DNA from: Candidatus Polarisedimenticolia bacterium
GTDB lineage: Bacteria; Acidobacteriota; Polarisedimenticolia; Gp22-AA2
Length of the DNA stretch: 64,000 nucleotides
Direction of reading: 5' to 3'
Assembly (NCBI GenBank): GCA_036001465.1
Contig: DASYUH010000013.1
Coordinates: forward strand, 92,554-156,553
Positions 3,368-34,783 of the stretch are shown piece by piece. The position numbers and the translations under genes are program-made. Below the pieces are notes generated by a model. The model was not told the DNA's origin and ran no database searches. It saw only the letters and a program-made list of their open reading frames with translations. How positions within the stretch are numbered: position 1 is the stretch's first letter; the number at the start of each line of letters is the position of its first letter.

Positions 3368-4810
3368 ATGCCGGCGGGTCAGGGCCGCCCGTCCGGAACG
3401 GAGCTTCTCGGCGATGCTGTCCGCGTGAAGTCCTCCTCTTGGTACCGATTCGTCAGAGTTACTCTTCGCGTGAAACAGTCGGTTCTTGATCGTTGGGATC
3501 TCGCCGCTCTTCTCTGTCTCGCTGCGAGCTTCCTTCTCGTGGCGAATGTGGGGTTCAAACCAAAGCCGTTTGGCGACACGGACTTCCACATCGAAGCCAA
3601 GGCTCTCTCCGCGGCCCTCCGCGGCGAGATGCCCTGGACCAGCGTCGCCATGACGAAGGCTCCGGCCCCCGTCGTCTACTACGCGATTCCTTATCTGTTC
3701 ATCAAACAAGGTTCGTCCGACGACGACTATTGGCGCGTTGGCGTGTTCTGGACCGCACTGTGGATGGGCGTCTCCCTGCTGTTGCTGCGAAGAGCCGCCG
3801 CTCGCGTTGGAGGGACAACGGCCGGGCTCTTCGCAGTCGTCATCACGTTGCTCAACCCGTTCAACATCTACTACGCGTTTGGCATCAGCGCAGAGAACCC
3901 GGCGTATCTCGGCGCCATATTGATGATCGCCGCATGGTTCTGGGCGAACGACAAGACTCCCGCCGACAAGAGCTCCTGGTCCAGCGCGCTGGCATTGGCG
4001 CTCGGCACCACGGTGTTGATCCTCTCGAGGCCCAACAGTGCGTTGATGCTGCCGCTGATGGTGCTGGGCGCAGTCGTCCTGGCAAGACGTGGTGACCGCG
4101 CGGGTATCCTTCTCGGTCGCAGCGTTCTCGTCGTGGTGCTCGCCCTAGCGGTGACTCGGATGGTGATCGCGCAGCTTCCCGGCCGCCCGGAGATCGCCCG
4201 ACAGGGCTCGTATCTCGCTCACGTGATGTTCCACGGCAGCTTCCAGTACCGCACGGAGACGTGGGATTGGCGCTTCTGGGACATCAAGACCCGCCCGGAC
4301 AGTGTGGACTACATCACCTGGAGCGAAGAGCTCACGTCGCTGGAGCTCGAAGCTGGACGCAAGAACGTGCCGCTCGCGTCTCTCGAATATCAGTGGATTT
4401 GGAACGATTTCCTCAGAAATCCACTCCTCCGACTGAAGATGGTCGCGGTGCGGGCGCTATCGATCCATTTCGCTCGCGTCAACTCGGTCAGTCGTCAGAC
4501 CTTCAAGATTGGTCCTTGGGAAGGACCGGCCGCGTATTGGAGCGTTCATATCGCGATCAATGCGCTGAGCGTCCTCGTTCTTGCCTGCGCACTCATCTTC
4601 ACGTTCCACCACCCGGGAGGTCCCTGGTCGGTTTGGCCGATATGGGTGCCTTGGGTCGCACTGTTGGCGTTTCACACCCTGTTTTACGCCGAGCCGCGCT
4701 ATCTGTTGCCGACGCGGCCCGGCCTGATCGTCGGGGCTGCTGCGCTGATTTCCGGCGTCCTGTCACAGCGGCGCCGATCCAACGTCACGAAGAGCTCAGG
4801 ATCGATCTGA
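3368..4810 (+). CDS. Polytopic membrane protein, probably a GT-C-fold (ArnT/PMT-like) glycosyltransferase
   Basis: 480-aa ORF with at least 9 predicted hydrophobic helices and no soluble catalytic domain. GC is lower (about 60%) than its neighbours. The start is uncertain (ATG 3368 or in-frame GTG at about 3470). Family assignment comes from overall architecture only. Confidence 0.5.
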   Translation: MPAGQGRPSGTELLGDAVRVKSSSWYRFVRVTLRVKQSVLDRWDLAALLCLAASFLLVANVGFKPKPFGDTDFHIEAKALSAALRGEMPWTSVAMTKAPAPVVYYAIPYLFIKQGSSDDDYWRVGVFWTALWMGVSLLLLRRAAARVGGTTAGLFAVVITLLNPFNIYYAFGISAENPAYLGAILMIAAWFWANDKTPADKSSWSSALALALGTTVLILSRPNSALMLPLMVLGAVVLARRGDRAGILLGRSVLVVVLALAVTRMVIAQLPGRPEIARQGSYLAHVMFHGSFQYRTETWDWRFWDIKTRPDSVDYITWSEELTSLELEAGRKNVPLASLEYQWIWNDFLRNPLLRLKMVAVRALSIHFARVNSVSRQTFKIGPWEGPAAYWSVHIAINALSVLVLACALIFTFHHPGGPWSVWPIWVPWVALLAFHTLFYAEPRYLLPTRPGLIVGAAALISGVLSQRRRSNVTKSSGSI

Positions 4811-4915
4811 CCCGCCGGCGTTCATCGGACCTGTAGCCTGCGACCTCGGTGACGACGGCGAACGGCCTCGCCTTGACCTCGTCGAAGATGCGGCCAACGT
4901 ACTCGCCGAGGACAC

Positions 4916-5902
4916 CTAGCGCCCCGCCGCAGGGCGGCGCACACGGGCCTCAACCCCGTTCCCCCCGTATTCGCACCAGATCTCCACCCCGCCGATGCGC
5001 TCGAGAGCGCGGCGGATTTGGTCGCGAGTGCGGAAATGCTTGTACCAGTCCGTCAGCGAATCGTGCGTGTCGAGCAGCGACCATTGGCGCTGCAGATCGT
5101 CGTTGAGCGGCAGCGCGTGGTAGTAGGACAGCACCGGAGATACCCTGCTGAGGAGGGCCTGCGCCACTCGGCTTCGGCGGGCCGCCCGGTGCAGTGGGAA
5201 CAGCCACCGGACCAGGCGGTCGGTCCAGAGCATTCCCTGCTCGGGCGGCAGGTGGCGCAAGACGATGCGGAACAGCGGCGCCGTCTTGGTGAACTGTGAG
5301 AGAGTATAGGTGTAGTGGTCCAGAACGAGCCAACCGCCCGGCTTCACCTGGGCGTACAGTCGCGCCAGTGCCTCCTCGGGGCTGGGTGTGTGCTGCACGA
5401 CACCCAGGCAGAATACGATGTCGTACTGCGCGGGAGCGAAGGGCAGCGAGAGGATGTCCGCCTGGACGACGCGGTGCCGATCGTCCTGCGGGAAGTTCTC
5501 CTGGTTGGCCTCGACGGCGGAGCTCAAGTCCACCGAGGTGACGCAGGCACCCGTCGACAGCAGCACTTCGGTAAATCGTCCCGCCCCGCAACCCACCTCG
5601 AGCACGTGGGTCCTGCCGGGAGCCTGGAGCGCCCGCCAGAGGGACTCTCCCAGACAGCGCCGCGCCCGGTCACGGGAGATAGTCGTGCGGGTGTAGGAGT
5701 CGAGCTGCGTCCTGCGATGAACGTTCCACTGCAAGCCGAAGGCGTCCGCGTACCCTCGTTCGGGCACGAAGCGGGGAATGCCGGCCCGCTCGGCCCAGGC
5801 ATGGCCCCGGCGGCAGGCGAGTCCCGCCGCGGCTCGCTCGAGCGGCTGGGCGTCATCCGGGCAGACGAGGGCCGGCCAGGCATCCGTCAAGAGCGCCGCC
5901 AC
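4916..5902 (-). CDS. Class I SAM-dependent methyltransferase with a Trm112-like N-terminal segment
   Basis: SAM motif I VLEVGCGAGRFTEVL. Acidic motif DLS. Motif IIl YDIVFCLGVVQHTP. The N-terminus LVCPDDAQPLE...YADAFGLQWN resembles the degenerate zinc-ribbon/Trm112 fold seen ahead of some methyltransferases. The ORF track runs on to 6541 in a G/R/P-rich frame that overlaps capA, which is probably spurious. A GTG near 5902 is proposed as the start. Confidence 0.6.
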   Translation of the reverse strand: MAALLTDAWPALVCPDDAQPLERAAAGLACRRGHAWAERAGIPRFVPERGYADAFGLQWNVHRRTQLDSYTRTTISRDRARRCLGESLWRALQAPGRTHVLEVGCGAGRFTEVLLSTGACVTSVDLSSAVEANQENFPQDDRHRVVQADILSLPFAPAQYDIVFCLGVVQHTPSPEEALARLYAQVKPGGWLVLDHYTYTLSQFTKTAPLFRIVLRHLPPEQGMLWTDRLVRWLFPLHRAARRSRVAQALLSRVSPVLSYYHALPLNDDLQRQWSLLDTHDSLTDWYKHFRTRDQIRRALERIGGVEIWCEYGGNGVEARVRRPAAGR

Positions 5903-7044
5903 AACGCCGCGAGCCTGTGCATGGCGAACCGGCCGAGCATTACGAGGTGCTCCGGGCGCGCGCGCGACATGTTCGAGGTCAGCTCCCGCCAGTGACCTTT
6001 GCGAAGGTGAATCCAGAGCCAGCTCAAGAGGTTCCCGGTGTTCAGCGAGGCTCTCTGGCGGGTGAACGCCTCTCGATACCGATCCAGGCGGATGTCCAGG
6101 CTGACCGCCTCGAGATGATCGATGATCCGCCGCGCCTCCGTTTCGACCGCCGGCACGACGCGGTAATCGTCCGTCACCTGGATCGGCACCACGGCGATCG
6201 TGCGGACCCCTTCCTTGTCGATCTCCATGATGAAGATGGCGGATTCCCTCTGCTTTTCGGGCACCGGCGGGACGCCCAGCTCTCCCTCGAAGACATCTGC
6301 GACGAAGTTGCCGAGGTTGTAAACCGCCGCCCGTCCTCCTTCCACGCCATAGCCCTGGAGGACGTGGGCGTGGTGCATGAGGACGACATGCGCGCCGGCG
6401 GCCAGGAGGCGGTCGGCGATCTCCTTGAACTCCGGTTTCGGGTAGTCGAGCCACATCAACCCGATGTGGATCGAGATGATGACGCAATCGACGCGATCCC
6501 GCAGCGCCGCAACCGATCGCATCGCGAGCCCCTCGTCCCATTCGACGAAGCCGGGCACCTCGGGATCGTCCTGCCGCTGCAGCGTCCTGCCGAATCCCAG
6601 CAGGCCGATCCGCAAGCCCTGTGCCTCGATTTCGACGGGCTGCGACGCCTCTTCCTGCGTCCCACCGGCGCCCAGCGGAAGCATCCCCGCGGCCGCCACG
6701 ACGCGACGCGTCTCCTGCAGTCCGCCGGGACCGTACTCCAGGATGTGGTTATTGGCCAGCGACAGCACCGTGAACCCGGCGCGCGACAGAGGCCCGGCCA
6801 TCGCCGGGTCACCCCTGAAGAGCTCCCGTCCCGGTCGCGGGGCGCACAGCGGGGTCTCCAGATTGCCGAAGACGATGTCCCCCGAGCGCAGGATCGGAGC
6901 GACCGCGGCGAACGCTTCGTCCGCGCCGGCCGCTCCCGGGTAGCGCCGGCGCACGCCGCCGGAGAGCATCAGGTCGCCGACTGCGACCAGACGGCAGGAG
7001 GCGCCCGCGGGCGCCCCCGGACGGCGGTAGAGCAGACGCTCCAC
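5887..7044 (-). CDS. CapA-family protein (poly-gamma-glutamate synthesis CapA-like metallophosphoesterase)
   Basis: 385 aa. Calcineurin-like fold motifs VAVGDLML, GNLETPL, LANNHILEYG, ISIHIGLMW...VLMHHAHVLQGY. Confidence 0.75.
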   Translation of the reverse strand: MERLLYRRPGAPAGASCRLVAVGDLMLSGGVRRRYPGAAGADEAFAAVAPILRSGDIVFGNLETPLCAPRPGRELFRGDPAMAGPLSRAGFTVLSLANNHILEYGPGGLQETRRVVAAAGMLPLGAGGTQEEASQPVEIEAQGLRIGLLGFGRTLQRQDDPEVPGFVEWDEGLAMRSVAALRDRVDCVIISIHIGLMWLDYPKPEFKEIADRLLAAGAHVVLMHHAHVLQGYGVEGGRAAVYNLGNFVADVFEGELGVPPVPEKQRESAIFIMEIDKEGVRTIAVVPIQVTDDYRVVPAVETEARRIIDHLEAVSLDIRLDRYREAFTRQRASLNTGNLLSWLWIHLRKGHWRELTSNMSRARPEHLVMLGRFAMHRLAALWRRS

Positions 7045-7340
7045 CTAATGCCTCACAGCGGTCGTGGGGATCGGCATCAGCACAGTTGCCATCAAGGATT
7101 CACCAGGGCTTCCGCGGTTGCGAGGGCCTGAATATACCCCGGCGGCCGGTGTACGGCAATGCTCATTCCGATCACGGATACCGTTCCTTCCGGCCAGCAT
7201 GGCAACCCTAGCCAGGCGCTGGGTCGCCAACTATCTCAGGCGGTGGGAAGCGGTGGAGCGGGTCTCACAAGCATTGGAGCCAGGGGAAACCGGGCGCACG
7301 CCCGAACATGCAGTCCAGGGCCCGCACGGGTACTGATGCG

Positions 7341-9083
7341 TCAGTCTGCACGTTCGTAGATGTCGATGTTCGGTCCGGGCCTCTCGACGTCGTGGAAACC
7401 GGCGAAGGGCAAATAGAACGCGTCCTGTTGATCGAAGAAGTTGTCCTTCCGATCGAGTTCGGTCACGTGGAAGGACCTCGTACGTCTGTAGGATTCTTCC
7501 AATAGGCGTCCTATCCCGGCCGGGATCTCATTGCGCGTTGAAAGCGGTGACGAGGCCGTGATGATGTATCGGGGTCGATCATGTCTGATCTCATGGCCAA
7601 AAGCGAACTTGCGAGATTTCGGATCATAGGCCCATTCCTCGAACACCCGGATCTGCTTCGCCTCTTGATGATCGGCTAGGATGCGGTCCATCTCCGCCCT
7701 CATCTCCCCGATGGCACCGGACGCAGGCTCAGAGGTCCTCTCCAGGGATTCACGAGTTTCGGGCAGCCGCAGGCGCTCCCAGCCGCCGGTTTGATAGACG
7801 GAACTGTGTCCCTCGAGGTGAGCCTGTGCCCAGTTGGTGGCCAGGAGGCGACTATCGGGTCTGTCGAGAAGCGAGTTTGATCGGATTACGTTATGGGCCG
7901 AAGGGAAGACAATGAGGCCCGCGAGGGCCAGGGTCGCACCGTTCTTCAGATAGGAGGAACGACCCCGTGCAATGAGGTCGGCGAGGTCAATGACACTGAC
8001 GGCTGCCGCGATGCAGAGAAAAGGGACGACGGGAATCATGTACCTGAGGAACACGGTCAACCCTTTTCCCGCGATGGCGTAATAGACCATGGGAAAGGAC
8101 CAGAGGACGAGCGCGGTTCTCGGACTTCGGCGTGCGAAAATGAACAATCCGACCAGCGATGCGACCAGCAGGCTCCATCCAAGGCCGTGCCACAAGGTAA
8201 AGCGGAGGTGGTACCACCATCCCCTGCCTAGGTCGATGCGATCGCCCGAAGAGAGATGCCACGCCTCGTAGAGAACCCCGGAAAGGAACGTCCGGAAATC
8301 GATCAACGCGAACGGTGTCCCGGCCAGGAAGGCGAATACCATCCCAAGGACAAAGACCAAGATCCGTCTATCGATCAAGGACCCGAGCACGCTGACGTAC
8401 AACGGGCGGACAAGCGACACGTGGCACAAAAGGAGAGGGACGGCCAGAAAAAGACCACTGTACTTCGTGGACATGGCCAGTCCGGCGAAAATCCCGGCGA
8501 GCAGGTAATTCGTCCGAGTCGGATGAGCATGGATTCTGGATATGAACAGAACGGAGCACATGATCAGAAACGCCAGCGGTACGTCCGTGACGCCAAAGTG
8601 CGAGTCTCGGACATGGAGGTGTGTCAGGGCGAGAAAAAGTGCTGCGACGAGGCCCGTCCTCCGGTCGACGGAGCGCGCGCAAATGCGGTAGACGAGCCAG
8701 ACGGTCGCGATGCCGAGAGTTGCCGAAATGGTTCTGTCAATGAGGTAGAAGTTGGACGGATCGAGCGCGTATTCGGTGAGAAAGTCGGGTCGCGATGAAT
8801 ACCTTCCCGACAGGGTCCCGAGAAGGTAGTAGCAACCATACAAGAAGAACAGGACATACATGTAGAGCGTGGGATAGTTAAACACGTGCGGATTGAAATC
8901 GCCGGAACTGAAGCGAAGCGCCGTTCTGATCAGGTGAGCTTCGTCGGGCCGGCACTCCGGGTTCGGGAGCCCGAAGCCGATTCCCCAGAATCTTACGAAG
9001 GCGGCGACACACAGAACAGCGAGGAGCGCCAGGCGGTGCCCCGTCGAATTCGAGTGCGAGCCCTGGTCACGTTCCGTGGTCAT
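7341..9083 (-). CDS. GT-C-fold glycosyltransferase, family 39/83-like (ArnT / protein O-mannosyltransferase-like)
   Basis: Polytopic membrane protein. N-terminal loop RPDEAHLIRTALRF has a DE-type motif after TM1. Many TM helices, then a C-terminal soluble domain of about 180 aa. GC about 57%. The ATG at 9083 (MTTERDQ...) has a GAGG 10 nt upstream. The ORF track TTG is at 9137. Confidence 0.7.
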   Translation of the reverse strand: MTTERDQGSHSNSTGHRLALLAVLCVAAFVRFWGIGFGLPNPECRPDEAHLIRTALRFSSGDFNPHVFNYPTLYMYVLFFLYGCYYLLGTLSGRYSSRPDFLTEYALDPSNFYLIDRTISATLGIATVWLVYRICARSVDRRTGLVAALFLALTHLHVRDSHFGVTDVPLAFLIMCSVLFISRIHAHPTRTNYLLAGIFAGLAMSTKYSGLFLAVPLLLCHVSLVRPLYVSVLGSLIDRRILVFVLGMVFAFLAGTPFALIDFRTFLSGVLYEAWHLSSGDRIDLGRGWWYHLRFTLWHGLGWSLLVASLVGLFIFARRSPRTALVLWSFPMVYYAIAGKGLTVFLRYMIPVVPFLCIAAAVSVIDLADLIARGRSSYLKNGATLALAGLIVFPSAHNVIRSNSLLDRPDSRLLATNWAQAHLEGHSSVYQTGGWERLRLPETRESLERTSEPASGAIGEMRAEMDRILADHQEAKQIRVFEEWAYDPKSRKFAFGHEIRHDRPRYIITASSPLSTRNEIPAGIGRLLEESYRRTRSFHVTELDRKDNFFDQQDAFYLPFAGFHDVERPGPNIDIYERAD

Positions 9084-9434
9084 CCCGAAGCCTCGGATTC
9101 GGATGGAAGGGGGGCCATTGCGGCGCTCAGAAGTCAAATCGTAAGGGCGCAGCGACCGCGTACAGGGAATGGCAGGATGAGCGTCATCTTCTCGAATTCA
9201 TGGGAGCGGAAGGTCCCCATGCATAGATCGGCCGCGCGGACGCATCACGCCGGCCCCTACGAGGGGTGTCAGGCCGATGGCCATGATGGCCGTGCGTCGT
9301 TCCAGCGATCGCAAGGCTAGGACCATGCCGGCATTCTAGCACTGTCGGGGCCTTGGCCGAGATGGCCTATCCTGCGCGGCGATCGTCCCAAGACAGCCAT
9401 TGGCTGCGTGCGACGGGCCTTCCGCGCGAAGGGT

Positions 9435-9554
9435 CCGGTGGTCCTCATCGACTGCGGCCGGAAGAACAACCAGGTGTGCATGCTCCTGGAGAAGAGCGCG
9501 GAGGGCGGCCAGGGACATCGTCTTCAGGTTGCTGGTGAGGCCTGTCTTGGACAT
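9435..9554 (-). pseudogene. Composite ghost: a carA-internal fragment (plus strand, about 9435-9500) fused to a DUF4388 5'-end fragment (minus strand, about 9490-9554)
   Basis: 40 of 41 nt are identical to carA codons for PVVLIDCGRKNNQ (CCGGTGGTCCTCATCGACTGCGGCCG[G/C]AAGAACAACCAGG). The antisense side encodes MSKTGLTSNLKTMSLAAL, versus the live DUF4388 start MSMKGLTGNLKTMSLPDL. Confidence 0.55.
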
Positions 9555-9692
9555 CGCTCCTCAGGGGCGGTCCGGACGGGGCCGCGGAACGCCCGGTCCT
9601 GGTGGGGAATCACCGGGACCGGGGATGGTTGGCGATTGCATGCCCCGGGCAAACGTCGTATATTCTGAGACCCGGCGGACCCAAGTTACGCG

Positions 9693-10157
9693 ATGAACCC
9701 CTTGGCCAGGAAGGCCCTGCTCTTCGCCCTCTTCTCCCTGCTTCTGGGAGGGGAGACGGCCTACTTCGGGCGCGAGTGCGCCGCCACAGTCCAGCGACAG
9801 CGGGGCGAGCGGGCCTTCTTCTGGAACGATCACCGCACCTCGTGGGGCCACAATCGGGCTGCTCTCGCCTGGGGAAGCAACCCCGAGCGCCTGCGGCGGA
9901 AGAGACCGATCGACCTCCAGGCCCCGTCAGAGGATCCCCGCGAGAACCTGACCCCCGCCCTCATCGAGATCGATGCCGCGCGCCTTTTGGTCGCGCAGGA
10001 CGAGCGCGATTGCACCGTGGAGTTCCGGAAGAAGGCCATCGCGATCGACCCGTGCTCCTACGATGCCCGGTTCCTGCTCGGGCTCCTCGCCCTGAACCCT
10101 GGCGCGAGCGGCCACCGGGAGCAGTGCGCCAGCATGGCGCCGGGGACGGCACGATGA
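9693..10157 (+). CDS. Small secreted protein with signal peptide and TPR-like C-terminus
   Basis: 154 aa. N-terminus MNPLARKALLFALFSLLLGGETAYF looks like a signal peptide. C-terminus AIAIDPCSYDARFLLGLLALNPG is TPR-like. Its TGA overlaps the ATG of the downstream ligase-like gene (ATGA), which suggests translational coupling. Confidence 0.45.
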   Translation: MNPLARKALLFALFSLLLGGETAYFGRECAATVQRQRGERAFFWNDHRTSWGHNRAALAWGSNPERLRRKRPIDLQAPSEDPRENLTPALIEIDAARLLVAQDERDCTVEFRKKAIAIDPCSYDARFLLGLLALNPGASGHREQCASMAPGTAR

Positions 10158-11578
10158 GCACGCTGCGTCGCGACATGAGCCGCCCGATCATGATGCTGAT
10201 CGTGTTGGGCTACCTGACGCTGCTGGCCGTCGGACTGATCCGGATGCACCTCGATCCGGACGTCGTGGCGGCCCTGACGATCGGCGGGATCGGCCTGGTC
10301 ATCCTGGCGCTGCGCCCGTACCTCGGGATCCATGCGTTCATCGCGGTCATGTACCTCGAAAACGTCCTTCCCAGCGAGGGCGGTGTCACGGGCCCGAAGG
10401 TGCTCGGTGCGGTCATCCTCACGGGATGGCTCCTGAGCGCCGCCCTGCGGCGCGGGCTGGGCTTCCGGCTGGGCGCGTTCGTGCTGGTGATGCTCGCGTT
10501 CGTGACCTGGACCGGCGTCTCCTCGGTCTACGCTCTCGACGACGAGCTGGCGCTCGCCCGCGTCTTCAGCTTCGTGCAGCTGGCGGGCGCGACGCTGATG
10601 TTCATCTCGGTCATCGATCGCCCGAGCCGGATGCGGGGAGTGCAGTGGGCCATCGTCCTGTGGACTTGCCTCGCCACCATCTTCGCCCTGGCGGAGTACT
10701 ACCTGGGGTTGACCAACGTCGCCGTGGGATTCATCGGCAACCGGAACGGGCTCGCCAGCGGGATCAGCTTCGCGATCGTCTTCGCCTGCTTGCTCTACCA
10801 GGCGGATCCGGGGCGACTGGCGAGGCTGTTCCTTATCTTCACCCTGCCGGTCTTCTTCCTCGGACTCGCGCTCACCCTGTCGCGCACCGGCTTCATCATG
10901 CTCGCCGTGGGGCTTCTGGCGGTCTGGTACAGGGTCGTCAGGGACAAGGGTCTTCTGATCCTGGCGGGATCGGTGGCCGCGCTCAGTCTGGTTACCGTCC
11001 TGCTACCGGACACCGTCTGGCAGCGCGTCGGCAGCATCGTCCCGGCCATCCGGCAGCAGCGGGACACCTTCGGATTGCGGGTCCGGCTGTGGCAGGCCGG
11101 CATGCGGATGATCGAAGACCGGCCGGTGTTCGGCGTGGGGCCGGGCAACTTCGTCGCGGCCCTGCCGCGTTACTCCCCGGGGGAGCTGACGGGCCGGCAG
11201 CTCGTGGCCCACAACTCGTACGTGAGCGTCGCGGCCGAGATGGGGCTCGTCGGCTTGGCCCTTTTCCTGATGATGTACCTGCTGGCGCTCCGCGAGGCCG
11301 GCTTCGCTTTGCGATGGGGGCGACGGTCGGGATCGAAGGAGTTGGAACTCCACGCGTTCGCGATGGAGATCAGCCTGATCCTGGTGATGACCGGGGCCCT
11401 CGCCGGCAGCCTCGAGAGCCTCAAGTACAACTGGATGTGCCTGGGGCTGGCCGTCGGTGTCGGGCAGGTGGCACGGCAGGCCTCGTCGAGGGCCGGGGCG
11501 CAACTCCGCGGCAGGGCGGTCGGCGCCGTCACGGAGGGTGCGGGCGGCCCAAACGTGGAGCCGCGGCGACTCGGCTGA
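10154..11578 (+). CDS. O-antigen ligase / Wzy_C-family membrane protein (polymerase/ligase-like)
   Basis: About 474 aa from the ATG at 10154. About 10 TM helices. Characteristic periplasmic loop motif RPVFGVGPGNF...AHNSYVSVAAEMGLVGLALF. The ORF-track 5' extension (9602-10153) is G/R/P-rich and overlaps the upstream gene. Confidence 0.75.
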   Translation: MSTLRRDMSRPIMMLIVLGYLTLLAVGLIRMHLDPDVVAALTIGGIGLVILALRPYLGIHAFIAVMYLENVLPSEGGVTGPKVLGAVILTGWLLSAALRRGLGFRLGAFVLVMLAFVTWTGVSSVYALDDELALARVFSFVQLAGATLMFISVIDRPSRMRGVQWAIVLWTCLATIFALAEYYLGLTNVAVGFIGNRNGLASGISFAIVFACLLYQADPGRLARLFLIFTLPVFFLGLALTLSRTGFIMLAVGLLAVWYRVVRDKGLLILAGSVAALSLVTVLLPDTVWQRVGSIVPAIRQQRDTFGLRVRLWQAGMRMIEDRPVFGVGPGNFVAALPRYSPGELTGRQLVAHNSYVSVAAEMGLVGLALFLMMYLLALREAGFALRWGRRSGSKELELHAFAMEISLILVMTGALAGSLESLKYNWMCLGLAVGVGQVARQASSRAGAQLRGRAVGAVTEGAGGPNVEPRRLG

Positions 11579-11740
11579 CGGACCCCCCGGCGCTTCACCG
11601 GCTGGTGCTCGTCGTCGGGCAGCTCACCCTCGCGGGCTCGAGAGACAGGTCGTCCTGCTGGCTTCCGGTCTCGATCGTCGCCCGTTCGAGATCGGCGAGG
11701 TCTCGCTCACCGCCTGTGGCATTTGGGGAAAGGCTCTGGG

Positions 11741-11788
11741 CGAGATCGCGCCGAGATGCCCCAACGCCAAGTCCAGAACACTGTTCAC
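11741..11788 (-). repeat. Ghost copy of the mlaE 5' end (translates VNSVLDLALGHLGAIS)
   Basis: About 79% nucleotide identity to 2803-2850, same strand. ATG is replaced by GTG and there is no SD. Lies in the 590-bp gap between the ligase-like gene and plsC. Confidence 0.55.
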
Positions 11789-12170
11789 GGAACTCGCCGC
11801 ATCATGGCAAGATGGATCAGCCCGCCCAGCAGCACGTGCAGGCCAAGGTTGAGGATTTGGAGAGGGACGGGATTCCGGCCGCAGAGAGCCTGGGCGGCCG
11901 ACGCCGGAACCTTTAAAAAGCCGGATCCGAAGTAAAACTGGAAGTCATCGGAAACGTAGCCGCCGGTCAGCCCCACGCCCTATACGGCCACACAGGCCGC
12001 CGAAAGAAGCGTCAGGCAAAGGCCGGAGGCGTTCCGCGGAGTTGCGTTTTCGGCACGGATGAAAGAGAACGGAAGTCTAACGGAGCGACGTGCTCCGGTC
12101 AAGGAACGGAGCGCACAGTCTATACTTGCCGCCGGAGGGACCGCACCATCCCGCGACCGAGTCTGCGCTG

Positions 12171-17965: not shown

Positions 17966-18095
17966 GGACGAGGGACGTTATCAGACAGACCGGTGGCAGT
18001 CAAACCACGGTGTCGTCCCGCAGCCAGCCATCCGTGCTATGGTATACGCCCCCGTCGAGGGCGCGAGGCGCAAGGGATTCAACGAGATCGACCGG

Positions 18096-25419: not shown

Positions 25420-25674
25420 GGGTTGCGGCACAGTACGCCATGGTGCATCCAAATGCAATGGCGAATGCACGACGACCGTATGGATTTGGCGGTGCGCCAG
25501 GCACCGTAATCCGCGGGTCTAGCGCCCTGCGCTCCGCCCTCACGGTCTCGGCGGTGCGCGTTCTCAACATGCTGCTGTATCTCGTGTTCGCTCTCGGTGA
25601 CTTACTTCGGGACGAGCGTGCAGCGCGCGAGCATTTTATTGAGACACCTCGATCGGCACCCTTGAAATTCGGCT

Positions 25675-27313: not shown

Positions 27314-27470
27314 TGCCCGCATCATCGAGCCCTGGCAGGCGGCCTGAAGAGGCGGCCGCACGCGGGACACTGGAATGGGGAATGGTGGTGATCCCGGGGC
27401 CGGACCTGCGGAGACGGTAGAATAGGCGCAGGCCAGGGCTTTCGGTGCGTTGGGAGAGCGGGAACAGGCG

Positions 27471-29447: not shown

Positions 29448-30757
29448 GCCAGGGCACCCCCCTCTCCCTTATCTATCTACAAAACGGCAGCGGCACGGGA
29501 GGGGCCGGATTCAGCCTGGACGTCCTGCTGGCCCATCTGGACGCCGGCCGGTTCCGGCCGATCGTCTGGACCTGCGACGACGGACTCATGGTGCGGCGGT
29601 GGGAAGGGCGAGGGGCCCGGGTGGTGGTCCGCCGCATGCATCTCTTCGAGGGGCTCGACACGCACTTCGTGCAGGGCGCCATCGAACGCGATCCATCGGG
29701 ATGGCGCCGATCCAGCCTCCAGGCTCTCACGGCCGCCAGGGCTGCGGCCGCCCTGCCGGGCGAGATCGCCTTCCTGCGGCGCCTGCGGGCCCGTCAGGGG
29801 GTCGTCGTGCATGTGAACTCAATCGTCGCGTTGAGCGCGGGCCTTGCGGCTCGGCTCCTCGGCCTGCCGATCGTCTGGCATGTCCGCGAAATCCTCGCCC
29901 CGGGCGTCTGGGGGCGCATCGCCCGCCGGATCATCCTCTATTCGGCCTCCCGTATCGTCGCCGTGTCCGCTGCGGCCGCCGCCCCCTTTCAGGACGCGGG
30001 CGTTCCGGTGCAGGTCGTTCATAACGCGATCGAACTGAAGGCGTTCGATCCGTCCCTCGACGGCGCCCCCGTCCGCCGCGAGCTGGGTCTCCCCCCGGAC
30101 ACGCCCGTCGTCGGCTTCGTCGGGAGGCTGTTCCCGAGCAAGGGGACCTTCGATCTCCTACAGGCCATGTCAATCGTCTCCCGGGAGTTTCCCGGCGCTC
30201 ACCTCCTGATCGTGGGGGGGGACGATCCTCCGCAGGCCCACTCGTCAGGGGCGACCTGGAAAGGCAGGCTCCGCCGTCGTCTCGGTTTCGGGCAGGCGCC
30301 CGACTACCTGCCGCTCCTCCGGTCGGAGGCGGACCGTCTGGGCCTGGGGGACCGCGTCCATCTCCTCGGGCCGCGGCACGACACGCCCCGGCTCCTGGCG
30401 GCCATGGACGTCGTCGCGCTGCCGTCGCGCACGGAGGCGTTCGGCAGGACCATCATCGAGGCGATGGCCATGGCCAGGCCGGTCGTGTCCGTCGCCGTCG
30501 AGGGAATTCTCGATCTGATCCGGCACGACGAGAACGGGATCCTGATCCCGCCCCCCTCCCGGGTGGAGGATCTGGCCGTCGCCATCGCTGCGCTCCTCAA
30601 GGACCCGGGCCGCCGGGAGGCCCTGGGGCGGGAAGGTCGTCTATCCGTGGTCGATCGGTTCTCGGCGGAGCGTCACGCGCGGGCGATCATGGCCGTCTAC
30701 GAGGATCTGGCGGCCGGTCACATCGGACGCCAGGTCCAGATGCCGCGGGCGTATTGA
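29444..30757 (+). CDS. Glycosyltransferase family 4
   Basis: GTG at 29444 overlaps the paralog-4 stop. N-terminal domain SLIYLQNGSGTGGAGFS. C-terminal domain VHLLGPRHD...MDVVALPSRTEAFGRTIIEAMAMARPVVS. Confidence 0.8.
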   Translation: MSQGTPLSLIYLQNGSGTGGAGFSLDVLLAHLDAGRFRPIVWTCDDGLMVRRWEGRGARVVVRRMHLFEGLDTHFVQGAIERDPSGWRRSSLQALTAARAAAALPGEIAFLRRLRARQGVVVHVNSIVALSAGLAARLLGLPIVWHVREILAPGVWGRIARRIILYSASRIVAVSAAAAAPFQDAGVPVQVVHNAIELKAFDPSLDGAPVRRELGLPPDTPVVGFVGRLFPSKGTFDLLQAMSIVSREFPGAHLLIVGGDDPPQAHSSGATWKGRLRRRLGFGQAPDYLPLLRSEADRLGLGDRVHLLGPRHDTPRLLAAMDVVALPSRTEAFGRTIIEAMAMARPVVSVAVEGILDLIRHDENGILIPPPSRVEDLAVAIAALLKDPGRREALGREGRLSVVDRFSAERHARAIMAVYEDLAAGHIGRQVQMPRAY

Positions 30758-31656
30758 AACCGCAGGCGCAGGTCGCCGAGCGGCAGCGCCCCCAGGATCG
30801 ACTTGATCAGGCCGATGAGCACCGTGGCCGGGACGTCCACCACCTGGAGCGCGAGGCGGTAGAGTCGCGCAGGCCGGCGGCCGAAGCAGCGCTCGAGGTA
30901 GCGCTGAATACTGATGGCTCCGTTCACCAGTGTCCGGACCGGCGCCTGGCGGGCGCTCCGCCCTCCCAGGTGGGCAACCCTGGCTTCCGGCACGAAGTAG
31001 ATCTTCCATCCATCGCGGCGGATTCGGAAGCAGAGATCCAGGTCCTCGCCGCAGTGGATGAAGCATTCGCCGAACCCTCCCCCCTTCTCGAACAGGTCGC
31101 GGCGGAGCAGCATGGCGGCCCCCGAAATCGCCTGGACCTCCTGGACCACCTGGGGGTCGTAGGGTGAGACCAGCCGCTTCCTGAACCATGGTCCTACGAG
31201 AGGGAGCTTCTGGAGCCTGAACACGTCGATGGCCACGAGCCGCGCCGCGGTCGGCTGGACGCGGGCCGAGGTCTCCTGGAAGGTGCCGTCCTCGTTCCAC
31301 AGGGAGGGGCCCAGCATGCCCGCATCCGGGTGCTCCTGAAGGAAACGGATCAGGATCCCGAGGGCGCCCGGCATCACGATCGTATCCGGGTTCAGGAGCA
31401 GGACGAATCGTGCCGTCGCCAGGCGGAGGCCCAGGTTGCTCGCCCGGGCGAACCCCAGGTTGGCGCCGTTGACGATCACCTGGACCGATGGAAATTCGCC
31501 GCGCAGCATCGCGACGCTGTCGTCCGAGGACGCGTTGTCGACCACGATCAACTGCAGCGACAGGCTCGACGCGTCGGCGACCAGCGAGCGGATGCACTGC
31601 CGGAGGAGCGGCGCCACATTCCAGCTGACGATGATGACGGAGACGTCGGGGATCAT
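30718..31656 (-). CDS. Glycosyltransferase family 2
   Basis: 312 aa. VSVIIVSWN, VVDNASSDDS (DxD-type), LLLNPD, HCGEDLDLCFR. Convergent with the GT4 and overlaps it by about 40 nt. Confidence 0.8.
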   Translation of the reverse strand: MIPDVSVIIVSWNVAPLLRQCIRSLVADASSLSLQLIVVDNASSDDSVAMLRGEFPSVQVIVNGANLGFARASNLGLRLATARFVLLLNPDTIVMPGALGILIRFLQEHPDAGMLGPSLWNEDGTFQETSARVQPTAARLVAIDVFRLQKLPLVGPWFRKRLVSPYDPQVVQEVQAISGAAMLLRRDLFEKGGGFGECFIHCGEDLDLCFRIRRDGWKIYFVPEARVAHLGGRSARQAPVRTLVNGAISIQRYLERCFGRRPARLYRLALQVVDVPATVLIGLIKSILGALPLGDLRLRFQYARGIWTWRPM

Positions 31657-31668: not shown

Positions 31669-32628
31669 CTAGGTCGAGGGTCGAAGCACCGCGTGCCCGT
31701 ACTCGGGAATCGACGTCATCGGGCGGTGGGGAGGATCCAGCTCGCAAAGATCATAACCGACGCTCGCCAGGAAACCGCGCAGGGCCGCTTCGGTCGTGTC
31801 GAACAGCCGCCAAGCAAAGGAGTGCACCTCGAGGAAGATCCACGGACGGGCCGTCCGGAGCGTCTCGGCGGCGCCCTGCAGGGCCCAGAGCTCGGCCCCC
31901 TCCACGTCGATCTTCATGACTGAGGGCGGCGGCCCCCCGGCACGGACGAACTCGTCGAGCCGGATCGCGCAGATCGGCACCCAGGACGGTTGCGCGTCTT
32001 CCTGAGGATAGACGTTGCGCAACGCGTTGCCCGACGCCCAGGTCGTGGCGAGGGTCGGCCAGACGGGCATCGACACCACGCCGGCAGTGTTGGAGCAGGC
32101 TGCCTCCATGACCCGGATGCGATCGTCGAGGCCGTTCAGGGCGCAGTGTCGCCTGAGCAGACGGACCGTCTCGGGAACCGGTTCGAAGGCGACGACGCGC
32201 CCGTGCTCCTCCACGCGCCGGCAGGCGGCGATGGCGTACCAGCCGACGAAGCTGCCCACGTCATAGAACACGTGTCCCGGCTCGAGGTGCGCCAGCAGGG
32301 CGGCCAGCAGCCGATCGTCGCGCGGCACGGGGTAGCCGACCAGGAAATCGAAGTCCAGCCACAACGACTCCTCAACCGACGGCAGCTTGCAGCGGGCACG
32401 GCCGCGTCGCAGCGCGCGCTCCACGGCGAGGCTTGCCGCCTTGACGTTCCGGGCGCAGCGCCGTGCCGGCGCCTCGAGGGTTGAGCCTCGAATCCATGCG
32501 GGCATGGCCCAACGCGCGACCCATCCCGGACGGTTCATCGCTTCGTCACCTGGAACTCCCCGTTCCCTTTGCGCCCGGCGCGGAGCCTCAGCAACCCTCC
32601 GATGACCACGCGCGCATCGTCGATTCAC
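31669..32628 (-). CDS. FkbM-family methyltransferase
   Basis: Motifs FYDVGSFVGWY, VVAFEPVPE, MKIDVEGAEL. The 5' end is uncertain. The first 30-60 codons are R-rich and abut the flippase-fragment repeat. ATG candidates lie at about 32538 and 32502. Confidence 0.65.
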   Translation of the reverse strand: MNRRCARGHRRVAEAPRRAQRERGVPGDEAMNRPGWVARWAMPAWIRGSTLEAPARRCARNVKAASLAVERALRRGRARCKLPSVEESLWLDFDFLVGYPVPRDDRLLAALLAHLEPGHVFYDVGSFVGWYAIAACRRVEEHGRVVAFEPVPETVRLLRRHCALNGLDDRIRVMEAACSNTAGVVSMPVWPTLATTWASGNALRNVYPQEDAQPSWVPICAIRLDEFVRAGGPPPSVMKIDVEGAELWALQGAAETLRTARPWIFLEVHSFAWRLFDTTEAALRGFLASVGYDLCELDPPHRPMTSIPEYGHAVLRPST

Positions 32629-32867
32629 AGGCCGTGCAACTGGGCGGCGTAGATTCCAATCCCGAGAGTGCGCCCCGTCATGACCTGCACGATCCGCGGC
32701 CCCTCCCTTCCAAGCTCGGCTAGGCGCTCGAAAACGCCTGCCCAGGCCAGAAGGGGCACCCCCATGACGACGGCAGCCGCGAGGACCCTGGCGGCGAATA
32801 GGGTATCACCCGGGCCCCAAACTGTCCCGACCCCTCGGAGCACCAGGAGAAGCAGGATGAGGAGGAA
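32625..32867 (-). pseudogene. Duplicated 3'-end fragment of the MurJ/Wzx-like flippase gene (repeat copy A)
   Basis: Encodes ...LLILLLLVLRGVGTVWGPGDTLFAARVLAAAVVMGVPLLAWAGVFERLAELGREGPRIVQVMTGRTLGIGIYAAQLHGL*. This is about 65% identical to the C-terminus of the intact flippase at 35834-36077. It shares an exact 28-mer GCGGCGAATAGGGTATCACCCGGGCCCC (32791-32818 versus 36000-36027). Confidence 0.6.
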
Positions 32868-32879
32868 ACCACGCACGTA

Positions 32880-33108
32880 CGCCTCTCCCGAGGCTCTCGC
32901 GGATACCATCGTGTCCGTCATGAAGAATGACGCAAAACGTGCGGCAATCGGGCGCACTGCCCGCCATGCGGTGTTGCAGCGGTTCTACGCGGCGTATCGC
33001 GCGGATCGAATGATGGCCGTCGGCTCCGGCTCGAAGGCAGGCGTGACACCTGGGGGAACCGATCCTAGCCGCCTCAAAGCGCTCCTGAACCTTGGCTCAA
33101 ATCTCTGA
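32880..33108 (+). pseudogene. GT4 glycosyltransferase 3'-end fragment
   Basis: Encodes ...PEALADTIVSVMKNDAKRAAIGRTARHAVLQRFYAAYRADRMMAV, which parallels the C-terminus of the GT4 at 29444-30757 (VEDLAVAIAALLKDPGRREALGREGRLSVVDRFSAERHARAIMAV). No N-terminal domain is present. Confidence 0.35.
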
Positions 33109-34783
33109 CGAAGATGGAATACGCCCCGAACGTCGCCGAGTGACGATAGTTTCGCGTGAGATAGGCATCGAGTAGAGCCGCTCCCTCTTCCCGGTTGGCT
33201 GCGGTCGTCGACTCGGCATCGGCTCCCGACCAGAGAACGACGTACCGCACATCGCGTGCTGCAAGATCCTTCGCAATCTCACCCTGTACGCGCTCCGTGG
33301 TAGCGACGCCGGGGTGCAGCTCGTGATATCGGGTGGCGCTGTCCCTGTCCGCGAGAAAATAGAAGAGCACATCGTTTGTCTCGACCCTGCGGTGTGTCCA
33401 GAGTCCCACAAAGATACGCTCGCCCGGTCCCACGTGATCAACGATGTATCCGACAGCGGCCAATTCGTCCGGGTCGGCCACCGCGTACCCCAACCGACGC
33501 TCCGGCAAGGTCGACCAATCCCCGCTCCGCGGGAGAGCTTCCGTCGGAGGTCCCAGGATCACGCGTGCCTTGACGTAGACGGGCTCGACGAGCATGGGGA
33601 GTAACAGAACCAGCGCCGCGACTGCCGGCAGATAGGACGCCCCGCCGGAAGGTCGCTTCAGGATCCCCTGCCCCAGAGGCAGGAGGAGGAGCACGGGGAC
33701 GGAGAAGACAAGCAGATGAGGCAGGTCCGCTCGGACGAGTATTTGAGGAAACAGAGCTCCCGCGAGCAGCGTAAGGTGCAGGATTGTCCATCGTCGGGCC
33801 CGGTCGAGGGAGTCCTGAACGTGAGGTCGCCCCACAAGGAGCAACATGGACAGCACAAACACCAGCGGAACGACATAGTAGGGAAGGGCGGTCAGTGAGT
33901 ACGAGAGATACGAGCGAAGCGAGAGAGAACCATTGAGGAAGAGAGAGAGGCCCGGCGGACGAGGATACGGGAGGGCGCGCACGGAGGGAAATACATGGGC
34001 CGGGAAGATGATCAGATCCTCTATTACTTCCTTCAGAGGAACGGCTATCACGAGACAGAGTGCGACTGGGAGCACGATAATCGCAACCCCTAACACATAG
34101 AGGAGGATTCCCTGCATCCTGCTGGCAACCCGCGCCCATGAGCCCGACTCGGTGACAGTTCCGGTGGATGCCGAGAAAGTCAGGACAATCAGTCCTGCGA
34201 GGGACGCGTAGAATCCCACGTCATGACGGAATACTGCTGTAGCTCCGGCAGCCATACCTCCGAGAAGCAGTCTGAGCGGGCTCGTCGGATCGATGCTGTG
34301 GCGCTCGAGCAGCAGGACGGATGTCATGCTGAGAAGAAGGGCTATCAGCACGGAGGAGCCGAAGGGCGAGAACCTACCGAGCCAGACGGTCCCCACGAGC
34401 CAGCACAGGAGGGCTGTGCTCCGGGAGACGAAGGGCGCCGTGATTCTCCAGGCGAGCAGCACCAAGGATGAGCGGATGAGGATGTTCGAAACACGCTCCA
34501 CCAGGAGGGACGGCCCGAACAGCTTGAAGAGTGCCGCCAGGAGGTAGAACTGGCCGGGCGGGTACATCGTCCACCAGTCCCGGTAAGGGAGTTCTCCTCT
34601 CAACACCCTGAGGGCCCCGTAGACGATGACACCTTCGTCATACGGATTGGCGTGGAGGGTCACATCGGGAAGAAAGTAAAGCACCGAAAGTATCGCCAGC
34701 GATGGATAGAGCCACGCCTCATTCAGGGGCTGCCTCCACCTCCGGGTGCGTTCCAGCCGTAGATCCACCAGGCGCGCCTCCAC
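33074..34783 (-). CDS. GT-C-fold glycosyltransferase, ArnT/PMT-like (family 39/83-like)
   Basis: 569 aa. First periplasmic loop YDEGVIVYGALRVLRGELPYRDWWTMYPPGQFYLLAALFKLFG is the ArnT/PMT DE-motif region. 10 or more TM helices, then a C-terminal soluble domain. GC about 58-60%. Confidence 0.65.
   Translation of the reverse strand: MEARLVDLRLERTRRWRQPLNEAWLYPSLAILSVLYFLPDVTLHANPYDEGVIVYGALRVLRGELPYRDWWTMYPPGQFYLLAALFKLFGPSLLVERVSNILIRSSLVLLAWRITAPFVSRSTALLCWLVGTVWLGRFSPFGSSVLIALLLSMTSVLLLERHSIDPTSPLRLLLGGMAAGATAVFRHDVGFYASLAGLIVLTFSASTGTVTESGSWARVASRMQGILLYVLGVAIIVLPVALCLVIAVPLKEVIEDLIIFPAHVFPSVRALPYPRPPGLSLFLNGSLSLRSYLSYSLTALPYYVVPLVFVLSMLLLVGRPHVQDSLDRARRWTILHLTLLAGALFPQILVRADLPHLLVFSVPVLLLLPLGQGILKRPSGGASYLPAVAALVLLLPMLVEPVYVKARVILGPPTEALPRSGDWSTLPERRLGYAVADPDELAAVGYIVDHVGPGERIFVGLWTHRRVETNDVLFYFLADRDSATRYHELHPGVATTERVQGEIAKDLAARDVRYVVLWSGADAESTTAANREEGAALLDAYLTRNYRHSATFGAYSIFVRDLSQGSGAL

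Follow-up and report, generated by a model that had tools for sequence, protein, structure and literature searches.

Introduction

Antigenic variation in enteric and in Gram-positive bacteria is driven by AT-rich genes of the GT-C or Wzy type that are carried in polysaccharide loci and exchanged horizontally. One described mechanism is the three-component periplasmic system GtrA/GtrB/GtrC, which is responsible for O-antigen glucosylation in Salmonella and Shigella and whose operons sit in a prophage context. Soils and sediments harbor Acidobacteriota in abundance, and the surface polysaccharides of these bacteria bear on aggregation, desiccation tolerance, and phage interactions; we know of almost no experimental work on how the glycans of Acidobacteriota are built and diversified. 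Alg9-like/GT22 and Dol-P-Man-dependent mannosyltransferases (ALG9, ALG12, PIG-M, and PimE) are also among the closest known systems. The pentofuranose system of Citrobacter youngae is a three-component periplasmic glycosylation system with a GT-C enzyme of family GT136 (PMC11127046), and multicomponent systems of Gram-positive bacteria decorate cell wall glycopolymers (PMC8035078).

Here, we analyzed a stretch of 64,000 nucleotides (the window) from an uncultured member of the Acidobacteriota, class Polarisedimenticolia, which contains a variable surface polysaccharide region with three GT-C-fold glycosyltransferases of three different families (GTC-1, GTC-2, and GTC-3). Like the three-component systems, the region has GT-C enzymes within or beside a locus for a polysaccharide of the Wzx/Wzy type (here by gene context), with a putative catalytic acidic residue following transmembrane helix 1 and with variable, serotype-like accessory genes; GTC-2 and GTC-3 also resemble GT136 with its CBM in carrying extra C-terminal, putatively periplasmic domains. 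Unlike in those systems, none of the GT-C genes in the window has a cognate polyprenyl-phosphate-sugar synthase gene or a donor flippase gene as its neighbor, and unlike in gtr operons, the GT-C genes lack a prophage context. The arrangement is well known in kind and is no new type of system. We assign a probability of about 0.6 to the explanation as a whole, namely, that three GT-C families would carry out periplasmic decoration from polyprenyl-phosphate sugars and are exchanged as independent cassettes. The region offers a concrete, testable example of three GT-C enzymes as swappable decoration modules, and its recombination scars show module movement without mobile-element genes. Its value lies in incremental annotation and in a candidate enzyme family (that of GTC-1, which has no characterized member), with no new concept.

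Results

NCBI protein VGV60_02780, from a Candidatus Polarisedimenticolia MAG, has the same sequence as GTC-3 (100% identity). The polysaccharide region is flanked by the Mla operon and by DUF4388-carBA, and annotation of the neighboring genes with Pfam and NCBIfam assigned to it one Wzy_C protein, one flippase of the MurJ/MOP family, three glycosyltransferases (two GT4 and one GT2), four amidotransferases resembling AsnB, four methyltransferases, and one acyltransferase. The Wzy_C gene product scored 72 bits against TIGR03097, under the cutoff of that model, and MurJ scored 199.6 bits against TIGR01695, not reaching the cutoff of 235. MurJ leads the gene string murJ-methyltransferase-GTC-3-FkbM-GT2, and the SAM-dependent methyltransferase gene (GC3, 0.84) forms the end of the string GTC-2-PGA_cap-methyltransferase. 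The three ORFs named in a preliminary description of this DNA were confirmed (Table 1). Their placement in one locus was generous: a distance of 24 kb, which includes genes for thiolase and acyl-CoA dehydrogenase, separates GTC-1 and GTC-2 from GTC-3.

Table 1. Features of the window discussed in the text
Feature	Coordinates	Strand	Evidence or remark
GTC-1, GT-C-fold glycosyltransferase of a small uncharacterized family, 480 aa	3368..4810	+	
Methyltransferase, SAM-dependent, 328 aa	4916..5902	-	Methyltransf_11/25/12/23 matches; same call on identical contig
PGA_cap (CapA-like) protein, downstream of GTC-2	5887..7044	-	Pfam PGA_cap, 188 bits
GTC-2, PMT_2/PMT-domain GT-C glycosyltransferase, 580 aa	7341..9083	-	Pfam PMT_2 and PMT
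Region upstream of GTC-2, moves with it as part of the cassette	9084..9441	-	
Wzy_C-domain membrane protein, O-antigen ligase/polymerase-like	10154..11578	+	Pfam Wzy_C, 81.6 bits
Pseudogene fragment, a relic of the 3' end of murJ, abuts the FkbM start	32611..32865	-	Downstream arm of direct repeat
GTC-3, divergent PMT_2-like GT-C glycosyltransferase, 569 aa	33074..34783	-	
Methyltransf_24 (TylF-like) methyltransferase, in repeat-bracketed segment beside GTC-3	34854..35420	-	Pfam, 44 bits
MurJ/MOP-family flippase	35765..37348	-	Pfam MurJ, 182 bits

GTC-2 matched PF13231 (PMT_2; 56.2 bits, gathering threshold 26.1) and PF02366 (PMT; 54.3 bits, gathering threshold 22.7), and almost all of its homologues (n = 637) carry the same pair. 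Homologues of 580 aa back its start at the ATG at 9083, as do the gene calls for identical contigs. The first-loop motif is RPDE, with D47 and E48 conserved at ≥90% in the family, and the protein has a conserved C-terminal soluble region of ~180 aa.

GTC-3 itself gave no match in the Pfam scan, and PF13231 is present in about 40 of its 98 homologues, the closest nonidentical one sharing 37% identity. The first-loop motif is YDEG (D49, E50, and G51 conserved at ≥90% in the family). The AlphaFold model (pLDDT, 89; pTM, 0.91) comprises ~10 to 12 helices of membrane length and was matched by Foldseek with a probability of 1.0 to AglB, STT3, ArnT, AftA, DPY19, and Pmt2. The C-terminal α/β domain of ~140 aa is conserved and was assigned to no known type.

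GTC-1 belongs to a family of ~300 clusters at 50% identity among 1.8 billion representatives. Since homology and confident structure set in near residue 40, its start is uncertain and could lie anywhere from 3368 to about 3480, up to ~110 nt downstream of the ORF start. G69 and D70 of its first-loop motif, FGDxDFHxEAK, are invariant within the family, other signatures of which are the conserved, putatively periplasmic insert FQYRTExWDWRFW and a C-terminal YAEPRY. Its score against PF13231 stayed under the gathering threshold (19.7 versus 26.1 bits), and its marginal Pfam match is to the Alg9-like family GT22 (PF03901). The AlphaFold model, again with ~10 to 12 helices of membrane length, gave Foldseek probabilities of 1.0 to STT3, ArnT, PglB, ALG9, and ALG12, and its fold is equally far from those of Pmt4, AglB, ArnT, and ALG12.

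The three had been described as ArnT/PMT-like paralogs. Full-length sequence similarity among them was not found, and recent paralogy is rejected: the GTC-2 and GTC-3 families share a remote N-terminal module only (hhalign, 97%; E value, 2.8e-11; 165 columns, with the DE motifs aligned), while the GTC-1 profile showed no significant similarity to GTC-2 or GTC-3 (probabilities of 4.5% and 13%). The ArnT/PMT-like label suits GTC-2 and, remotely, GTC-3, but not GTC-1, with its marginal GT22 match, and none of the three is orthologous to ArnT or to canonical PMTs. The polytopic nature claimed for all three agrees with the AlphaFold helices of GTC-1 and GTC-3 and with the hydropathy of GTC-2, in line with the range of ~7 to 13 transmembrane helices of the GT-C superfamily. 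In each, the first long helix of the model is closely followed by an acidic motif conserved within its family, and the DE/DEG first-loop motif reported for two of them is present in GTC-2 and GTC-3. Moreover, their structural likeness to solved GT-C enzymes is well above that to other membrane folds. Pfam, the homologues, and Foldseek thus bear out the original GT-C assignment, and we conclude with high confidence that the three proteins are membrane glycosyltransferases with the GT-C fold, not transporters.

The GC contents of GTC-1, GTC-2, and GTC-3 are 0.614, 0.583, and 0.612, compared to 0.65 to 0.71 in the GT4, GT2, and AsnB neighbors. The AT-richer composition noted earlier also survives a computed GC3 test. 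At synonymous sites, the GC3 values (0.742, 0.707, and 0.702) fall 2.9 to 3.9 standard deviations under the mean of 39 other window genes (mean, 0.855; standard deviation, 0.039; minimum, 0.757), and relative to the GC3 expected from the amino acid content of each protein, z equals −8.1, −10.7, and −11.8. Among other polytopic genes, the Wzy_C gene (0.80) and murJ (0.81) are less affected, and the copies of the GT-C genes in the relatives L003 and L004 have low GC3 as well. Independent recombination of cassettes, and not the amino acid bias of membrane proteins, would account for this composition.

The separate acquisition proposed in the preliminary description gains comparative support from each of the three genes, and we consider it probable that they are independent accessory cassettes, separately gained, moved, and lost by recombination; we infer the direction of each transfer event. 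GTC-2 stands at different sites: its neighbor is carA in L003 and the Wzy_C gene in both L004 and the window. Window positions 7330 to 9441 align to L004 9647 to 11754 (93% identity) and positions 9228 to 9441 to L003 8958 to 9168 (78% identity), and in L004 fragments of DUF4388 and carA directly precede the GTC-2 upstream region. The third-codon-position identity between the window and L003 is 0.80 for GTC-2 versus 0.56 to 0.63 for five core genes. GTC-1 has been broken by a 718-bp internal deletion in L004, a close relative (91% identical) in which GTC-2 is intact; therefore, the stepwise set that had been suggested is not an obligate one. By blastn, window positions 4919 to 7330 have no counterpart in L004, which thus lacks both the methyltransferase and the PGA_cap gene.

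GTC-3 and the adjacent methyltransferase gene are bracketed by a direct repeat of 255 nt (76% identity; spacing, 3,209 nt), the upstream arm of which is the 3' end of murJ (35820 to 36074). The alignment of the two arms runs on beyond an in-frame stop, and the translation of the downstream copy resembles the MurJ C terminus; a small hydrophobic ORF (32625 to 32957) considered as GtrA was rejected, as it corresponds to this relic. None of 27 related murJ loci sampled contains a GTC-3 homologue. The bracketed methyltransferase gene (GC3, 0.77) has homologues of 57 to 58% identity downstream of murJ in L001 and L024. The best relatives of MurJ are just 66% identical, even though the adjoining DUF4388 gene is 84 to 87% identical in those same loci.

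Alternatively, low GC3 may be no mark of foreign origin: vertically inherited accessory genes for membrane proteins may be poorly expressed or subject to weak translational selection or weak GC-biased gene conversion. GC3 indeed forms a gradient with no clear two-way split, and intermediate values of 0.76 to 0.81 occur elsewhere in the glycan region (methyltransferases, 0.76 to 0.77; Wzy_C gene, MurJ, and acyltransferase, ~0.80). The homologues of GTC-1 (98 to 63% identity) and GTC-2 (91 to 62%) form graded series, a pattern that genes resident in the lineage should show, and the scans, including Pfam, detected no integrase, IS element, or tRNA marking the cassettes at their flanks. Low expression or relaxed codon selection could explain part of the low GC3, and given the graded series, the acquisition of GTC-1 and GTC-2 is not recent, both having resided in the lineage for some time. 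As a full explanation, we nevertheless regard vertical inheritance as unlikely: the chromosomal site of GTC-2 differs among relatives, carA and DUF4388 scars go along with this gene, a duplicated murJ end brackets GTC-3, which has no homologue above 37% identity outside its own strain, and the highly hydrophobic MlaE has a normal GC3 (0.87). The synonymous divergence of GTC-2, markedly lower than that of core genes, is the opposite of the outcome under relaxed constraint.

Discussion

We see somewhat better than even odds that the three enzymes decorate a Wzx/Wzy-type polysaccharide from polyprenyl-phosphate sugars. Each would most likely be an inner membrane protein whose active site faces the periplasm, where the acidic residues after the first transmembrane helix (D70 in GTC-1, D47/E48 in GTC-2, and D49/E50 in GTC-3) would serve to move one sugar from a lipid-linked polyprenyl-phosphate-sugar donor to a repeat unit on its lipid carrier or else to the completed polymer. 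The outcome would be a side-branch decoration of the serotype type. Of the three GTC-3 homologues whose surroundings were sampled, two belong to polysaccharide loci, where the other genes include Bac_transf, Polysacc_synt, and GT4.

The window contains no polyprenyl-phosphate-sugar synthase and no donor flippase of the GtrA, SMR, or MATE type; the GT2 at 30718 to 31656, considered as a donor synthase, matches cytoplasmic EPS-type GT2s and not the GtrB, ArnC, or DPM1 types. Just past its MlaD gene, L004 encodes a pair of NDP-sugar dehydrogenases, a pair of epimerases, a GT2 of 227 aa, and ManC, and the first of these genes is also next to MlaD in the strain of the window. The best NCBIfam matches of the 227-aa GT2 are all polyprenyl-phosphate-sugar synthases (AglJ, PpgS, PgfS, ArnC, and Dol-P-hexose transferase), making this protein, from a relative and outside the window, a candidate synthase and a possible donor supply.

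PMT homologues of Actinobacteria glycosylate secreted or envelope proteins, and GTC-2 above all, or the others, might likewise be protein O-glycosyl(mannosyl)transferases. Besides its PF02366 match and the DE motif in loop 1, GTC-2 found in a profile search a sole sequence match among solved structures, fungal Pmt4 (E value, 2.5e-4), and weak profile matches to Pmt4 and Pmt2 were obtained with the families of GTC-2 and GTC-3. In addition, ManC beside the synthase-like GT2 of L004 fits a polyprenyl-phosphate-mannose donor, and the third sampled GTC-3 homologue sits amid housekeeping genes, outside any glycan locus. However, the Pfam scan of GTC-2 returned only PMT and PMT_2, with no MIR or PMT_4TMC domain at an E value of ≤0.01, so that a canonical GT39 enzyme, such as yeast Pmt1/2/4, is rejected; the sequence likeness to these is limited to ~120 to 150 residues. 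The polysaccharide operon setting, in which GTC-2 neighbors the Wzy_C gene and GTC-3 is part of the murJ string, and the variable-cassette behavior typical of surface glycan diversification further make protein targets improbable compared with the polysaccharide role.

A modification of lipid A or the LPS core with aminoarabinose or a similar sugar, affecting charge and antimicrobial peptide resistance, is very unlikely. ArnT (GT83, undecaprenyl-phosphate-L-Ara4N:lipid A transferase; PDB IDs 5EZM and 5F15) shares the GT-C-A architecture, is among the best structural matches, and has Pfam PMT_2 in common with GTC-2 and the GTC-3 family. Yet ArnT proper is rejected, since no NCBIfam ArnT model matched even at an E value of ≤1, and the profiles of all three families matched no ArnT sequence among solved structures in the PDB. 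Furthermore, the C-terminal domains differ, the neighboring genes scanned include no homologue of the ArnA formyltransferase, ArnB, ArnD, or ArnE/F, and the conserved arn operon bears no resemblance to three different, cassette-like enzymes that vary from one close relative to the next. Finally, that the ORFs encode polytopic transporters or other nonglycosyltransferase membrane proteins, for which the lack of a Pfam match in GTC-3 and the marginal matches of GTC-1 could speak, is effectively refuted.

More tentatively, GTC-1 may found a rare new bacterial GT-C family, and the region, together with the C-terminal domain of GTC-3, might exemplify element-free cassette movement in Acidobacteriota through flanking carA, DUF4388, and murJ fragments instead of phages or IS elements. 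In that case, the GTC-1 family would deserve its own CAZy number, as did ORF12, the founding member of GT136. As for the gene model next to GTC-2, the gene calls indicate that the 658-aa ORF from 9602 probably represents two genes, at 9693 to 10157 and 10154 to 11578.

Results

All three ORFs that the preliminary description had singled out as membrane glycosyltransferases were found where it had placed them: the GT-C gene GTC-1, the PMT_2/PMT-domain GT-C gene GTC-2, and the divergent PMT_2-like GT-C gene GTC-3. Homologues of 580 aa, together with gene calls on identical contigs, back the ATG at 9083 as the start of GTC-2. For GTC-1 the start is ambiguous (3368 to about 3480), with conserved sequence and confident structure from about residue 40. 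With GC contents of 0.614 (GTC-1), 0.583 (GTC-2), and 0.612 (GTC-3), the genes are clearly AT-richer than the window (0.674 overall and 0.696 in its right-hand housekeeping part). Since AT-rich codons at positions 1 and 2 are a feature of hydrophobic proteins, the comparison was made at third positions, with a correction for amino-acid content. GC at synonymous third positions (GC3) is 0.742, 0.707, and 0.702, respectively, versus a mean of 0.855 for the 39 other genes of the window (standard deviation, 0.039; minimum, 0.757), and the z scores relative to the GC3 expected from amino-acid content are -8.1, -10.7, and -11.8. Other polytopic genes are far less lowered (MlaE, 0.87; the Wzy_C gene, 0.80; MurJ, 0.81). 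The compositional difference proposed earlier thus holds when computed properly, and the low GC3 is real rather than a by-product of membrane-protein composition. The GT-C genes also carry it in both relatives, the close relative's contig L004 and the more distant L003.

The identity of GTC-2 is unambiguous: it scores 56 bits against Pfam PMT_2 and 54 bits against PMT, hundreds of homologues have the same two domains, and an RPDE motif (D47/E48) is kept after the first transmembrane helix. GTC-3 itself has no Pfam or NCBIfam match; PF13231 is present on about 40 of 98 of its homologues. Because searches of the family profiles against PDB sequences gave marginal matches only (Pmt4, E = 2.5e-4; Pmt2, E = 0.016) and none for the GTC-1 family, fold comparison was needed. 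The AlphaFold model of GTC-3 is confident (pLDDT 89, pTM 0.91), and Foldseek relates it with a probability of 1.0 to AglB, STT3, ArnT, AftA, DPY19, and Pmt2, with transporters at noise level only. All three proteins are GT-C-fold glycosyltransferases; therefore, the possibility that they belong to unrelated transporter families is ruled out by fold and family evidence.

They are, moreover, three different GT-C families. The GTC-2 and GTC-3 profiles align in hhalign (97%, E = 2.8e-11) over the N-terminal 165 columns, with RPDE and the YDEG of GTC-3 in register, in keeping with the DE/DEG first-loop motif reported for two of the ORFs. GTC-1 has no significant profile similarity to either. The term "paralogs" does not fit in its usual sense; GTC-2 and GTC-3 have just a remote N-terminal catalytic module in common. 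Nor are the three ArnT/PMT orthologues: none matches an ArnT-specific model in the NCBIfam scan, and in Pfam GTC-2 lacks MIR and PMT_4TMC, both of them parts of canonical PMTs. The same NCBIfam scan returned insignificant matches only (WsfD, 16.7 bits; archaeal STT3, 18.3 bits) and assigned no subfamily. Run exhaustively in HMMER (E ≤ 1e-3), the profile of the GTC-1 family recovered only 311 clusters, many fragmentary, among 1.84 billion representatives; GTC-1 belongs to a small GT-C family with no characterised member.

The GTC-3 family also shares an alpha/beta domain of about 140 residues at its C terminus, marked by the strongly conserved motif GERIFVGNxRHDRIFxNDxLFYFLAxRxSATRYHELHPGVATT. 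Scanned as part of the whole protein, this domain has no Pfam match, and the search of PDB sequences gave none either.

The gene order from the left edge of the window to about 37.3 kb is given in the table below. Several neighbours resemble XrtA/PEP-CTERM-associated EPS genes, below curated cut-offs. The four AsnB-like glutamine amidotransferase paralogues find their best NCBIfam match in the XrtA/PEP-CTERM system amidotransferase, also below its cut-off, and the scan of the genes turned up no exosortase. The thiolase and acyl-CoA dehydrogenase genes divide the glycan region into two sub-clusters, an arrangement shared with L004. The 1043-aa protein, for which no transmembrane segment is predicted and whose sole match is a weak LolA_like/TP_0789-like one, is kept in L004 (88% amino acid identity) between AsnB and thiolase.

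Genes and sequence features in and beside the glycan region (window positions)
Order	Feature	Position	Strand	Remark
1	MlaDFE			left edge
2	GTC-1	3368-4810	+	480 aa; right of MlaDFE
3	GTC-2, PGA_cap, SAM methyltransferase			convergent string
	GTC-2	7341-9083	-	580 aa
4	Wzy_C protein, acyltransferase, AsnB-like amidotransferase
	"Wzy_C" ORF	9602-11578	+	658 aa; probably two genes, as called on identical and related contigs
	154-aa gene	9693-10157	+	other frame, higher GC3
	Wzy_C proper	10154-11578	+
	AsnB-like	12895-14814
5	1043-aa protein	14834-17965	-
6	thiolase, acyl-CoA dehydrogenase	17850-20469
7	GT4, three more AsnB paralogues, methyltransferase, second GT4
	AsnB-like	21641-23482; 23491-25470; 27450-29447
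8	murJ, Methyltransf_24, GTC-3, FkbM methyltransferase, GT2		-	minus-strand string
	GT2	30718-31656	-
	murJ 3' repeat, copy 1	32611-32865		degenerate relic, at the FkbM start
	small hydrophobic ORF	32625-32957
	GTC-3	33074-34783	-	569 aa
	GTC-3 C-terminal domain	33074-33500	-	residues ~430-569
	Methyltransf_24	34854-35420	-
	murJ 3' repeat, copy 2	35820-36074		genuine end of murJ
	DUF4388, carBA, queA/queC, EF-G, aminoacyl-tRNA synthetase			right of glycan region; housekeeping
	DUF4388 source of chimera	37977-38231
	carA source of chimera	43397-43597

GTC-3 lies between two copies of a 255-nt direct repeat of the murJ 3' end (76% identity; spacing, 3209 nt), which bracket exactly the Methyltransf_24 and GTC-3 segment. 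In the downstream relic, the homology runs past an in-frame stop, and the relic overlaps the FkbM start. This relic is a pseudogene, for which gene callers give a 98-aa hypothetical protein. The small hydrophobic ORF was considered as a GtrA-like flippase and rejected, since it is a decayed second copy of the 3' end of murJ. Both copies are equally distant from relatives (44 to 49%). A protein of a Candidatus Polarisedimenticolia MAG (Acidobacteriota) matches GTC-3 at 100% identity, the best GTC-3 homologue outside this strain reaches 37% identity, and none of the 27 related murJ loci has a homologue. In those loci, the adjacent DUF4388 gene is 84 to 87% identical, murJ itself only 47 to 66%. 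A strain lacking the Methyltransf_24 and GTC-3 insertion was sought, and the contigs with an identical GT2 all had the same arrangement; the nearest of the other murJ loci share only 66% identity.

GTC-2 occupies different sites in different relatives. It adjoins the Wzy_C gene in the window and in L004, whereas in L003 its homologue and upstream region directly follow DUF4388-carB-carA and precede a different PMT_2 gene and a Methyltransf_24 gene. Immediately upstream of GTC-2, L004 retains pieces of DUF4388 (some 255 bp) and carA (some 200 bp), which resemble what is left of a copied DUF4388-carBA-GTC-2 segment after a later internal deletion. Third-codon-position identity between the window and L003 is 0.80 for GTC-2 versus 0.56 to 0.63 for DUF4388, carB, carA, an aminotransferase, and a TPR gene; therefore, the GTC-2 ancestor is more recent than that of the core genome.

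The L004 fragments form a chimeric 265-aa ORF (8828-9625) annotated CPSase_sm_chain, also found upstream of the GTC-2 orthologue in L005 and L006; in the window this junction spans only about 60 bp. The L003 island beside carA (11505-14624) combines the second, unrelated PMT_2 gene (556 aa; GC3, 0.80) with a TylF/Methyltransf_24 gene of very low GC3 (0.60), a pairing of GT-C and Methyltransf_24 that recurs in the window beside GTC-3.

GTC-1 is degraded in L004, which is about 91% identical overall: the gene lacks window positions 3808-4526, leaving a 241-aa remnant, and the methyltransferase and PGA_cap segment (4919-7330) is missing, while GTC-2 is intact. Pfam scans of the window genes detected no integrase or IS element at the cassettes, and the window contains no tRNA genes; the cassettes look to have moved by recombination through flanking homology. 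Synonymous-site identity to L004 is 0.90 to 0.92 for AsnB1, Wzy_C, and GTC-2; the 1043-aa gene has 0.74 and the Mla genes have 0.82 to 0.87, a mosaic that suggests recombination tracts inside the region.

Discussion

The observation in the preliminary description is confirmed and its interpretation largely right, with two corrections, namely, that these are three families and independent cassettes. Separate acquisition is supported by the other site of GTC-2 in L003, the repeats bracketing GTC-3, and the deletion in GTC-1 in L004. The idea of a stepwise set does not extend to an obligate one, as L004 keeps GTC-2 intact beside a GTC-1 remnant. O-antigen and capsule loci have long been known to harbour AT-rich membrane glycosyltransferase genes that are exchanged horizontally; the added interest is modest and lies in the rare GTC-1 family, the GTC-3 C-terminal domain, and the clear, element-free recombination scars.

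Characterised GT-C enzymes use a polyprenyl-phosphate sugar at the periplasmic face and a first-loop Asp/Glu (summarised in PMC11127046 and PMC8035078). By analogy, each of the three enzymes would bind a polyprenyl-phosphate-linked sugar at that face, with the first-loop Asp/Glu activating the acceptor hydroxyl. Because of the operon context, the acceptor is most likely the lipid-linked repeat units or the finished Wzx/Wzy-type polymer, which would receive side-chain decoration. Two rival roles, protein O-glycosylation and modification of lipid A or its core, are less probable readings and fit the gene context and the family criteria less well. Of three GTC-3 homologues sampled, two lie in polysaccharide loci and one does not.

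Neither a donor synthase nor a donor flippase is present in the window. The GT2 of the murJ string was rejected as a GtrB/ArnC-type synthase, since its best matches are of the MftF, EpsD, and PgaC types; it has a single C-terminal hydrophobic helix and is of the cytoplasmic EPS type. Just past MlaD, L004 encodes two NDP-sugar dehydrogenases, two epimerases, a 227-aa GT2, and ManC. For this 227-aa GT2, the best NCBIfam matches (AglJ, PpgS, PgfS, ArnC, and Dol-P-hexose transferase), although below cut-off, are all polyprenyl-phosphate-sugar synthases. In the window's strain, too, the first gene of this L004 series comes after MlaD, and there the contigs stop. Because of this synthase-like GT2, ManC, and the presence of the first gene in the window's strain, a polyprenyl-phosphate-hexose, possibly mannose, is a reasonable guess for the donor. 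Five independent assemblies with identical Mla genes (L034, L035, L036, L040, and L041) end about 790 bp past MlaD, inside an NDP-sugar dehydrogenase gene, which suggests a repeat or a strain-variable junction; at that junction, L004 has two NDP-sugar dehydrogenase paralogues.
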